In this document: in pieces, positions 5,481-7,329 of the stretch | Layout of the letters: each line of letters begins with the position of its first letter | How positions within the stretch are numbered: position 1 is the stretch's first letter | Sequence record: PP925830.1 | Length of the DNA: 40,665 bases | Strand: one strand, 5' to 3' | Source of the DNA: Escherichia phage CharmingMan | Notes under the pieces: generated by a model | The model's database searches: none | Told to the model about the DNA's origin: nothing | What the model saw: only the letters and a program-made list of their open reading frames with translations | Translations under genes and position numbers: made by a program

Positions 5481-5636
5481 TTATTTACTGGATTTAATCA
5501 GGGGCCAGAGCAGCGCAATCACTCCGGCCACCAGCACGCCATCAGCGAGGATGGACATCATTTTGCTGGTGAAATCGATAGCAACCACCAGGAACAACAA
5601 AATCCCGGCGGCTGCCCAGCGCAGTTTTCCGATCAC
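5481..5636 (-). CDS. Possible 51-aa two-helix membrane peptide (not in ORF track, under 60 aa)
   Basis: GTG at 5636 overlaps the TerB-like stop (GTGA); product VIGKLRWAAAGILLFLVVAIDFTSKMMSILADGVLVAGVIALLWPLIKSSK. RBS weak, so low confidence. Confidence 0.25.
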   Translation of the reverse strand: MIGKLRWAAAGILLFLVVAIDFTSKMMSILADGVLVAGVIALLWPLIKSSK

Positions 5637-6058
5637 AGGTACTGATCCAGTGGAAGCTGCAGCGCCTGAGCGATTTTCTTCAGCTGTTTCTCTTCTTCTT
5701 CACCGATACCGTCGTTGTCAGCTACATCGAGACACAGGCAAAGAACATCAACAGCGTCATTTGTACCCGCAACATCAGCCAGTTCGCGCAGCGCCTGAGC
5801 GTTAGCAGAACGCGGTGAGGCTTCGTAACGAGCACGAATATTGCTACTCATCTGTGCGATCTCACCTGCGAACGGCGCGAAGGCAGGCAGTGCCGAAATA
5901 GTTTTTTCCAGCGTGGCGATTTCTTTCGCGTCGCAGGTACCGTCGGCATACGCAATGGAGTAAGCGCCCCATACAGTCGCCTCAACCGCATCGCGGTTTT
6001 CCATTTTCTTAACTTCAGTAACGGCTTTACGTGCTTTCTTTTTGAAGATACCGAACAT
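5633..6058 (-). CDS. TerB-domain (tellurite-resistance TerB-like) protein
   Basis: 141 aa with two ADG-type motifs spaced as in TerB/DjlA-N domains (AYADGTCDAKEIATLEKTI and DVADNDGIGEEEEKQLKKIA); AAAGGAAA RBS 6 nt upstream of ATG 6058. Confidence 0.55.
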   Translation of the reverse strand: MFGIFKKKARKAVTEVKKMENRDAVEATVWGAYSIAYADGTCDAKEIATLEKTISALPAFAPFAGEIAQMSSNIRARYEASPRSANAQALRELADVAGTNDAVDVLCLCLDVADNDGIGEEEEKQLKKIAQALQLPLDQYL

Positions 6059-6191
6059 AGTGACTTTCCTTTTAGCGGGTGAGCCAGCGCTCAGGAATGA
6101 TCAGCCCACAGAGACAGTCACACCGACCGTTCCCTATGGCTCACCCCTGAAAGACTCTGCGGTTGAATTGCGCCGAGCGTGGCGCGGATAT

Positions 6192-6215
6192 AAAAAAGGC
6201 CACCTATTGGCAGCC
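6192..6215 (-). terminator. Imperfect hairpin plus T-run downstream of the AT-rich 176-aa gene
   Basis: Minus strand reads GGCTGCC-aata-GGTGGCC followed by TTTTTT (forward A-run 6192-6197); stem has two G-U pairs. Confidence 0.35.
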
Positions 6216-6238
6216 TATTTTTGAGAATTTTTAAAAGT

Positions 6239-6769
6239 CTAATCCCATAATTTTACGGAATCATCTTGCGGTGTTTTTTTGCCTAACGGCTCACTTTCAA
6301 TCTTTGAAATAATTGACTGCTTCACAAGTTCGCTGAACTTAATCAAATCTTCAGGGCCATTAATTGACACAGAAACGTTGTTATCTTGTCTGTCGGCCAA
6401 AAGAACATAAATCAGTTTTTCGTCCATCATGTGAACATTGATTCGCGTAGCTACAGGGCGAGGCAGCGGCGGTTCATCATCAACCACTGTGTACAAATCA
6501 AACTTGGCTCCATCAACCTTATCAACGTCAAGATTAAAAAAAGACTGACGCCAAGTGCCATCATCATTTATTACATATACATAAGGATGGTTTTGATTAT
6601 CATTAGTCTGGAATGTTTCCCCAGGTAGCTCCAGTGAGCGGATATAAGTGCTGATGAACTCATTTACAGAGGAACGAATTAATTCTCTGTACTGATTTCT
6701 GTTTTTCTTTAACTCCGCTCTCTTATTTTTAAAATCTTTAAACGTAATCATACAGTTTCTCTTCATCAT
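6239..6769 (-). CDS. Hypothetical protein, AT-rich moron-like gene (start may be ATG 6751)
   Basis: 176-codon ORF, markedly AT-rich relative to flanking genes, co-directional with the late operon, own terminator-like hairpin downstream. No motif recognised. Confidence 0.5.
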   Translation of the reverse strand: MMKRNCMITFKDFKNKRAELKKNRNQYRELIRSSVNEFISTYIRSLELPGETFQTNDNQNHPYVYVINDDGTWRQSFFNLDVDKVDGAKFDLYTVVDDEPPLPRPVATRINVHMMDEKLIYVLLADRQDNNVSVSINGPEDLIKFSELVKQSIISKIESEPLGKKTPQDDSVKLWD

Positions 6770-6843
6770 GTTCCGAGATTACAGTATGCCACGATAAAGC
6801 GTTGCGAAAAGGTTCTGTGCCACGTTTTGGCTACGGGCAAGCA

Positions 6844-7329
6844 TCAACCACAAAGCTTAGCCTTTGCTTTCATGTAAGCTTCGTGGGCCAGTTCTGCCGT
6901 ATTGAAACTACCGAGATCTTTGCGTTTCCCGTTGACGCTAATCGCCGAACGCCACAAACCACGAGCCTTGCACCAGTTTGCTCCAATCAGCCCAGACTTC
7001 GCACCTTTTCGAGCCTTGTGCCTGTTCTGTTGATTAACAAACTGGGTAACGATGCGTAAGTTGTCCCATCGGTTATCTTTGGGATTGCCATTGATATGAT
7101 CGACGCACTTTTCAGCCGGCGGCAGCGCACCATCCATATATAAGAAAGCCAACTGATGAGCGAAGATTAATTTCTTATCGATCATTATCTGGATATAGCC
7201 GTGCGTATCTGCGTTCCCGGCTATTTTTCCAGGTGTAGACCGTGAGTTTGTTCGCTTGATCCAAACAAATAAACCAGTCAAAGGGTCGTACCTCAGAACC
7301 TCTTTCAGCCGTTCTTGGGTGATGCTCAT
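6844..7329 (-). CDS. HNH endonuclease with AP2-type DNA-binding domain (homing-endonuclease-like)
   Basis: HNH motif HGYIQIMIDKKLIFAHQLAF...VDHINGNPKDNRWDNLRIVT followed by an AP2-like segment GANWCKARGLWRSAISVNGKRKDLGSFNTAELAHEAY. Confidence 0.8.
   Translation of the reverse strand: MSITQERLKEVLRYDPLTGLFVWIKRTNSRSTPGKIAGNADTHGYIQIMIDKKLIFAHQLAFLYMDGALPPAEKCVDHINGNPKDNRWDNLRIVTQFVNQQNRHKARKGAKSGLIGANWCKARGLWRSAISVNGKRKDLGSFNTAELAHEAYMKAKAKLCG

Follow-up and report, generated by a model that had tools for sequence, protein, structure and literature searches.

Do the accessory genes that lie between the late antiterminator gene Q and the lysis genes of Escherichia phage CharmingMan (PP925830.1) act together as one system, or have they been collected one by one? 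The stretch of DNA that we analysed (the window; 40,665 nt, to whose positions all coordinates refer unless a contig is named) carries in this interval a gene for an HNH nuclease, an AT-rich orphan gene and a gene for a TerB-domain protein. A preliminary description, made from the sequence of the window, had considered that the trio might be a functional set, a nuclease plus a modulator, and had held that joint and independent action could not be told apart from sequence. Comparative sequence does decide the matter, in favour of independent cassettes. We put at roughly three in four the probability that the interval from Q and its late promoter PR' to the first holin gene is a recombination hotspot at the 5' end of a lambdoid siphovirus late operon, occupied by three independently acquired cassettes with four genes between them. 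For the trio itself the value of this result is mostly corrective, as an apparent system of nuclease, modulator and TerB protein gives way to three unrelated cassettes; beyond the trio, the item most worth following is a family of leader RNAs that precede genes of this kind.

Gene content between Q and the holins

Every gene between 3.4 and 10.6 kb of the window is encoded on the minus strand, as are all features for which window coordinates are given below. Transcription runs through a primase/helicase gene, a gene for a small PHROG-33270 protein, Q, the HNH gene, the orphan, the TerB gene, a gene of the DUF3927 family, two holin genes, a GH19 endolysin gene and the spanin genes. Q (7624-8406), the upstream anchor of the hotspot, is identified by Pfam Antiterm (PF03589; 1.7e-52) and by PHROG 127 (5e-100); with this match at one end and the two holins and the GH19 endolysin at the other, the position of the trio between Q, with its late promoter and terminator, and the lysis genes is confirmed. 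The three open reading frames (ORFs) of the preliminary description were recovered on the minus strand at 6844-7329 (HNH, 161 aa), 6239-6769 (the orphan, as a 176-aa frame) and 5633-6058 (TerB, 141 aa). It had overlooked a fourth gene, which encodes a DUF3927/TciB-like protein of 51 aa (5481-5636), and likewise the structured leaders ahead of HNH and TerB.

Co-occurrence and cassette junctions

We scanned IMG/VR from three anchors and obtained 11 orphan loci, 32 HNH loci and 80 TerB loci, the last being the closest 80 of 459 matches. The orphan follows Q in 10 of its 11 loci, none of which contains HNH or TerB. Among the TerB loci, DUF3927 is present in 74, HNH in six and the orphan in none. 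The HNH gene stands directly after Q in 30 of its 32 loci; 17 run straight on to a holin gene, seven contain TerB-DUF3927, and the orphan is again absent. The preliminary description had named homologues that occur only singly in unrelated contexts among the observations that would speak against a joint function, and the combinations found (Q-TerB-DUF3927, Q-HNH-TerB-DUF3927, Q-HNH-holin and Q-orphan followed by other genes) each lack the remaining members of the trio. Loci gathered through the leader sequence again show Q-HNH-TerB-DUF3927 without the orphan (L020, L041) and Q-HNH alone. The full set, with the arrangement seen around the orphan, is confined to the window and three Enterobacter assemblies. 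Because homologues occur singly in other contexts, the trio is not a unit, and the sequence comparison has the three genes as independent cassettes at a known insertion hotspot.

One could still picture a single conflict system in which an HNH effector, an orphan modulator or immunity protein and a TerB sensor are co-expressed from the late transcript. TerB domains and HNH nucleases do turn up in conflict systems, and the three genes lie side by side in one orientation, both in the window and in the three Enterobacter assemblies. The counts above largely refute such a system, which we regard as highly improbable: HNH and the orphan are missing from the nearest relatives, each unit has a terminator and/or leader of its own, and the junctions between the units are clean and recurrent. 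PADLOC and NCBIfam yielded nothing useful for the four proteins; PADLOC 2.0 was silent for the orphan, TerB and DUF3927, and its match to HNH was a weak, generic one to homing endonucleases ('HEase', 1.6e-4).

Among the nearest relatives, phage Fostie is 99.3% identical to the window over 3470-6186 and 88% identical over 7450-8406, and positions 6187-7449 (1263 bp) are missing as one block both from Fostie and from a prophage of E. coli UMNK88. In Fostie, LMessi and the UMNK88 prophage Q is followed directly by TerB-DUF3927, with neither HNH nor the orphan. Loss or gain as a block, and the fact that HNH and the orphan are neighbours in four genomes, would suit a two-gene mobile unit made of a homing nuclease and a cargo or self-protection gene. 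We nevertheless consider such a unit very unlikely, since in Q-HNH-TerB loci (L020, L041, L250 and others) the HNH cassette stops exactly at its stop codon (6846) with no orphan behind it, Q-orphan loci exist without HNH, and the GC content of the HNH gene is 0.475 versus 0.38 for the orphan. The suspicion that the low-GC middle gene was acquired separately is borne out, for it appears as a 659-bp indel against Q-HNH-TerB loci such as L020 and L250.

Breakpoints recur at three places, 7530/7531 (J1), 6846/6845 (the HNH stop) and 6186/6187 (J3). They delimit an HNH cassette (7530-6846) that comprises a terminator, a structured leader and an HNH_3 gene with an AP2-like tail, an orphan cassette (6845-6187) with the low-GC gene and its own terminator, and a TerB cassette (6186 to ~5441) with a related leader, TerB and the coupled DUF3927 gene. 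Homology with HNH-less loci stops at J1, ~16 nt past the inferred start of the PR' transcript and immediately behind TATAACGCCT. L250 has an 8-bp TAACGCCT repeat on either side of its HNH cassette, and its original tR' is found past the HNH gene; the cassette therefore entered beyond the conserved promoter-proximal segment, ~16 nt from the start of the PR' transcript. These features suggest a defined point of insertion at J1, on the border of the Q-utilisation region.

The HNH cassette

The HNH protein matches Pfam HNH_3 (PF13392) at 50.1 bits over a cut-off of 24.8 (2.2e-13; profile positions 2-44 of 46) and PHROG 99, 'HNH endonuclease', at 8e-60. The D-H...N...N catalytic residues are discernible at residues 77-102, in CVDHINGNPKDNRWDNLRIVTQFVNQQN. 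It had been described as an HNH-AP2 protein. The HNH part of this call stands well above the cut-off; the AP2 part is tentative, as PF00847 scores 23.3 bits (E = 8e-5) on residues 116-161 against a cut-off of 33.3, with comparable scores (26 bits) in leader-linked HNH relatives. A sequence search of the PDB returned no solved-structure homologue. Close homologues keep to a fixed site directly after Q (30 of 32 in IMG/VR), and the same site is empty in Fostie, UMNK88 and L175, a pattern that would suit intronless homing.

Because the protein belongs to PHROG 99 and combines an HNH_3 core, with its D-H...N...N residues, and a DNA-binding tail, the gene fits a free-standing, homing-type selfish gene for which cleavage and homing are predicted. 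Its enzyme would cut HNH-less alleles of the same site, the element having settled ~16 nt into the PR' transcript. With the free-standing HNH homing endonucleases of phages (I-HmuI-like, or HNH_3 plus AP2-type) it shares the HNH_3 core and, tentatively, a C-terminal AP2-like region, the on/off polymorphism at one intergenic site and, at the L250 junctions, the short direct repeat. It differs from them in that its cleavage and homing are predictions, in having no solved-structure match and an AP2 score below the cut-off, and in the terminator and RNA leader that travel along and also serve genes that encode no nuclease (Rha, KilA-N). The likeness to the T4 mob and seg genes is a behavioural analogy only.

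HK97-like phages have HNH proteins required in cos cleavage, and the gene might by that token encode no selfish nuclease but a packaging accessory like the terminase-associated HNH protein gp74 of HK97. We find this extremely improbable: the gene adjoins Q, not terminase, an HNH_3 domain with a DNA-binding tail is of the homing type (PHROG 99), and the gene is absent from the closest relatives, Fostie and LMessi, despite the shared lysis region (99.3% identity in Fostie).

The TerB-DUF3927 pair

The TerB call of the preliminary description holds. Pfam TerB (PF05099) scores 29.1 bits over a cut-off of 24.4 (1.4e-6), on one half of the protein only (residues 12-57), and PHROG 632 matches over the full length (3e-64). 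Two motifs, 'ADG..D..E' and 'ADNDG..EEE', are visible in the translation, and RefSeq labels the homologues 'tellurite resistance TerB family protein'. A sequence search of the PDB found no solved TerB homologue, with chance EF-hand similarity only. The DUF3927 protein matches Pfam DUF3927 (1.8e-14) and PHROG 1470, 'TciB-like' (3.5e-23), and has two hydrophobic helices; in the sequence GTGA its GTG start and the stop codon of TerB overlap, so that the two genes are translationally coupled. DUF3927 adjoins TerB in 74 of the 80 IMG/VR TerB loci and in every E. coli prophage that we looked at. This is the only fixed partnership at the locus, and the pair is a real two-gene unit found in several hundred E. 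coli prophages, where its place is invariably the post-Q slot, at times with tRNAs, an esterase gene, or an ADP-ribosyltransferase gene with an AB5-toxin subunit as neighbours. In E. coli QML220601 (L137, 1352-3571) it lies just downstream of genes for a scabin-related ADP-ribosyltransferase and for the binding subunit of a subtilase-family AB5 toxin, which places toxin cargo in the same slot.

By family membership the pair is P1 TciA/TciB-like: as in P1 tciA-tciB(-tciC), a TerB-domain protein is followed by a small DUF3927/TciB-like membrane protein (PHROG 632 and 1470). It differs from the P1 pair and the TerB of ter operons in its place in a late operon ahead of holins and in a structured leader of its own, and it has no terZACDE neighbours. 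We rejected a tellurite-resistance (ter) operon, since no terZ/A/C/D/E genes are among the neighbours of the window's TerB gene, which are Q, HNH, the orphan, DUF3927 and the holins. The function of P1 tciA-tciB has likewise been deduced solely from likeness to ter operons (PMC9603915), which work cited in that paper ties to resistance against pore-forming colicins and phages. In CharmingMan the two proteins may form a membrane-associated complex that acts at the inner membrane late in infection, where it would modulate membrane or ion status, for example against premature holin triggering, superinfection or colicins.

A role within lysis itself, in which the pair is a membrane regulator of holin timing (antiholin-like, or a buffer of the proton-motive force) and not a host-directed accessory, seems to us rather unlikely but worth serious thought. 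The pair stands directly upstream of a Phage_holin_8 gene in 61 of the 80 IMG/VR loci and in the window, its expression would be late, and the coupled partner has two transmembrane helices; the resistance to pore-forming colicins and phages for which PMC9603915 cites ter operons would agree with such a role. In other prophages, however, an esterase gene or other genes separate the pair from the holins, or toxin genes adjoin it; the pair is missing from many lambdoid phages that have the same holins, and 17 of the 32 HNH loci run directly to a holin. P1 tciAB, moreover, presumably lies outside the P1 lysis region.

Leader RNAs ahead of the cassette genes

The HNH gene, the TerB gene and a gene for a 312-aa protein past the spanins each come after a terminator and a two-hairpin leader of ~135 nt. 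The leader of HNH (7330-7479) consists of a hairpin, P1 (GCGC-ACCGCC-GCGC), and a long imperfect hairpin, P2, that stops just ahead of the Shine-Dalgarno (SD) sequence and the ATG; its minimum free energy is -52 kcal/mol (z = -2.9). The fold of the family is the same, a short hairpin GCGC-ACCGCA-GCGC and a long imperfect one that ends just before the SD. Within the inserted block, DNA matches elsewhere are limited to the ~120 bp immediately ahead of the HNH start codon, and this segment matches ~950 of 5426 complete E. coli genomes as well as P22, ES18, Stx and Klebsiella phages. In other phages, too, the leader comes after a terminator, and the gene immediately downstream is rha (P22, ES18), a KilA-N gene (Stx2 phage 1717, HK544), another HNH gene (Klebsiella RothC) or a hypothetical gene. 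The terminator and a GTATC motif are common to the HNH, rha and KilA-N cassettes.

A pattern scan of IMG/VR gave 125 leader instances, 123 of them with a callable downstream ORF (91 distinct proteins). The families downstream are Rha (with ORF11CD3), KilA-N, HNH_3 (with the AP2-like region), P22_AR_N and T5orf172/MUG113; Rha, KilA-N, HNH, P22_AR_N and T5orf172 are known for domain shuffling in phage regulators. One portable terminator-plus-leader RNA, with TerB among its users, stands ahead of many of the phage genes classically known to be shuffled. In the IMG/VR loci the leader is present ahead of 37/37 HNH genes and 84/87 TerB genes, and ahead of 0/11 orphan, 0/82 holin and 0/95 Q genes. 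An intrinsic terminator lies within ~115 nt upstream of 82 of 89 distinct leaders, versus 9% of random windows. The core motif of the leader occurs in genomes of Enterobacter, Citrobacter, Kluyvera, Kosakonia, Cedecea, Brenneria and others. Two contigs carry two full-scoring leaders of the rha/HNH type ~2 kb apart (L039, 292-448 and 2311-2467; L054, 2632-2788 and 4821-4977), an indication that cassettes in succession can each come with a leader. The core also occurs unchanged at 804-825 of L276, a 4-kb contig in a metagenome-assembled genome of Candidatus Nanosynbacter/Saccharibacteria, most likely as a binning contaminant.

Base-pairing is conserved throughout the family. In alignment A4, which holds 80 leaders distinct in sequence, the 34 pairs are 99.9% paired, versus 35-52% when the partners are slid; three of the 34 show compensatory changes. 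Several positions alternate between G-U, A-U and G-C and so preserve pairing solely on the sense strand; the G-U pairs, of which there are many, are confined to that strand. A covariance model built from A4-type leaders (R1) scores the HNH leader at 161 bits and the P22 copy at 166 bits. It also finds a diverged relative ahead of TerB (6059-6195; match 6049-6195, 24.6 bits, E = 1.6e-5), with the same match in Fostie, UMNK88 and L005-7, and a third, likewise diverged copy after the spanin genes, directly 5' of the 312-aa gene (3456-3586; 35 bits, E = 1.2e-8), in an arrangement shared with Fostie (L001) and L006. For ten diverse TerB leaders (type A5), RNAalifold returns a parallel two-hairpin fold of 35 pairs, four of them with compensatory changes. 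In this type the base of the long stem pairs CCUUU with the AAAGG of the SD, which the stem could thereby sequester.

A stretch conserved at cassette boundaries might have nothing to do with RNA and be a DNA-level linker through which lambdoid cassettes are swapped by recombination. The leader does lie exactly at cassette junctions, P1-like hairpin sequences flank the inserted block on both sides, the leader is better conserved than the genes downstream of it, and independent compensatory events are few. The near-complete pairing against slid controls, the alternation that keeps pairing on the sense strand only, and the compensatory changes in both subtypes nevertheless speak for a functional RNA, as does the accumulation of the P22 copy as a discrete 89-nt RNA (PMC13397905). 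We hold a linker without an RNA function to be unlikely. The two roles are compatible, not mutually exclusive.

At the gathering score, no Rfam 15 family matches anywhere in the window. With the threshold relaxed to E <= 5 on 6100-7700 and 3300-6350, the matches are at chance level and none overlaps 7330-7479, 6059-6195 or 3456-3586. Among the papers searched, the only description of the leader sequence is that of 'P22F' (PMC13397905, 2026), an 89-nt small non-coding RNA of P22 that is stable in infected cells and to which that paper assigns no function. P22F corresponds to the long hairpin in the leader copy that lies upstream of P22 rha, and by its R1 score the HNH leader of the window is the same element as the P22F region. 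PMC13397905 lists a single small RNA of P22; unlike the present analysis, it describes no family, no covariation and no architecture of terminator, leader and gene, and it gives neither the variety of downstream genes nor the TerB-type and post-spanin subtypes. The Pas small RNAs (sRNAs) of prophages of enteropathogenic E. coli lie near TerB genes (PMC13192938), and we asked whether the leader is one of them. We rejected this identity, since the Pas RNAs are Hfq sRNAs that all end in intrinsic terminators (PMC13192938). They might overlap the terminator segment upstream of the leader; PMC13192938 prints no sequences.

In form, the leader resembles some well-known RNA elements. The T7 R sites and the lambda N leader are long irregular mRNA hairpins for RNase III processing or translation control. 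The leader shares with them an imperfect hairpin of ~35 bp with internal loops, intergenic in a late transcript and 5' of an SD; the likeness is one of resemblance, with no sequence relation, and includes a stem base that in the TerB type can occlude the SD. We infer that the leader is a portable terminator-leader module for accessory cassettes, which would act in cis on the mRNA through processing, stability or translational control.

A wider reading is more tentative, and we give it somewhat less than even odds. It holds that the terminator-leader modules are an undescribed, Enterobacterales-wide family of cis-acting phage RNAs that mark and control exchangeable late-operon cassettes (Rha, KilA-N, antirepressor-like, HNH, T5orf172, TerB) and gate their translation or processing until Q-dependent read-through, the leader DNA doubling as a recombination joint. 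Should the leader prove to be a regulator at the RNA level, this would account for the silence of potentially harmful accessory genes before late transcription; its sequence could then be used to find such cassettes, and P22 rha, or the genes described here, would provide a simple model for experiments.

Transcription of the interval

A PR'-like late promoter (TTGACT-18-TATGCT; 7582-7553) was found by promoter scan inside a conserved qut-like module (7531-7623) that ends in TATAACGCCT and whose 3' edge is J1. It is followed by an intrinsic terminator, CCCGC-CACGTT-GCGGG plus T7 (7516-7487), seen in the sequence as the first element of the HNH cassette; this hairpin aligns with the terminator part of the Rfam Leu_leader model, a chance-level match. 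A terminator scan places a second intrinsic terminator at the end of the orphan cassette (6216-6197). On the gene strand from 7553 to 5372 there is no consensus sigma-70 promoter, in a consensus-only scan that leaves room for weak ones. Because Q lies upstream, a PR'-like promoter is present, the genes are co-oriented and no consensus internal promoter is found, late, Q-dependent read-through is the likely mode of expression of the four genes. They would be transcribed only when Q-modified RNA polymerase reads through both terminators. A place for the accessory genes in the late transcription unit downstream of Q, as the preliminary description had it, is thus supported.

The post-Q slot of Stx phages is the site of stx and nanS-p. 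The interval resembles this lambdoid accessory ('moron') slot, from Q and PR'-tR' to the lysis genes, in position and in its variable cargo for Q-antiterminated polymerase; in E. coli prophages the cargo there consists of TerB-DUF3927, ADP-ribosyltransferase and AB5-toxin genes, tRNAs and an esterase gene. Unlike a classical moron, which has its own promoter and terminator and is expressed in the lysogen, the genes here have terminators but no consensus sigma-70 promoter ahead of them, and in two of the cassettes the gene is preceded by a terminator and a structured leader that belong to the cassette. By this consensus-only scan, the suggestion that they are independent morons does not hold in the strict sense of the term. 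The interval is a typical case of a known hotspot, with one true orphan in it.

Several points weigh against the account given so far. The TerB set from IMG/VR is made up of the closest matches, and its counts are skewed to near relatives. The AP2 match of the HNH protein stays below the Pfam cut-off, and the catalysis and target specificity of this protein are predictions. The Q-dependent lateness of the genes is read from gene order and from a promoter scan, and a weak internal promoter is possible. Independent compensatory events in the leader are few (3/34 in A4, 4/35 in A5), and in A4 the apical sequence was dictated by the pattern with which the leaders were searched for.

A segment that runs from PR' to the terminator (7486-7574) gives a sub-threshold match to Rfam isrK, at 15.9 bits against a gathering score of 50, which is probably due to chance or to the terminator. 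IsrK is a Salmonella prophage sRNA tied to late-gene control.

The orphan gene

The middle gene had been described as an AT-rich gene of 176 codons with a terminator-like hairpin of its own. The low GC content (0.38 versus 0.51 across the window) and the hairpin (6216-6197) are both as described; the length is not. In all 18 homologue clusters the start is the second in-frame Met, because of which the gene most likely spans 6239-6751 and encodes 170 aa. Pfam, NCBIfam, PADLOC and BFVD gave no informative match, and the structure search that had been proposed for this protein, with an AlphaFold2 model of pLDDT 77.5, was no more telling. Our best guess, a weakly supported one, is a small protein-binding factor. 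Distant homologues (51-74% identity) are the first gene past Q and tR' and are followed by unrelated genes, with no HNH and no TerB. A still more distant relative (profile E = 1.4e-14; L144, 4001-4486) is placed differently from the post-Q position of all closer homologues, in a myovirus tail module between baseplate-like and sheath genes.

Other features of the locus

The primase/helicase gene at the upstream end of the region occupies 8717-10588. Over the queried structural and replication region, Fostie and LMessi share ~40-50% with the window at 91-93% identity, and an IMG/VR contig (L180) is 82-92% identical to it. Past the spanins, the 312-aa gene (2527-3465) has as its sole match a sub-threshold one to Phage_Tail_Tip (E = 0.0056); with the same leader, it is also found past the lysis genes in Fostie and L006. 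Upstream of the GH19 endolysin gene, the two holin-family genes stand in tandem (4718-5372) and overlap by 14 nt, the first encoding a Phage_holin_8 protein of 128 aa and the second a Phage_holin_3_7 protein of 93 aa.

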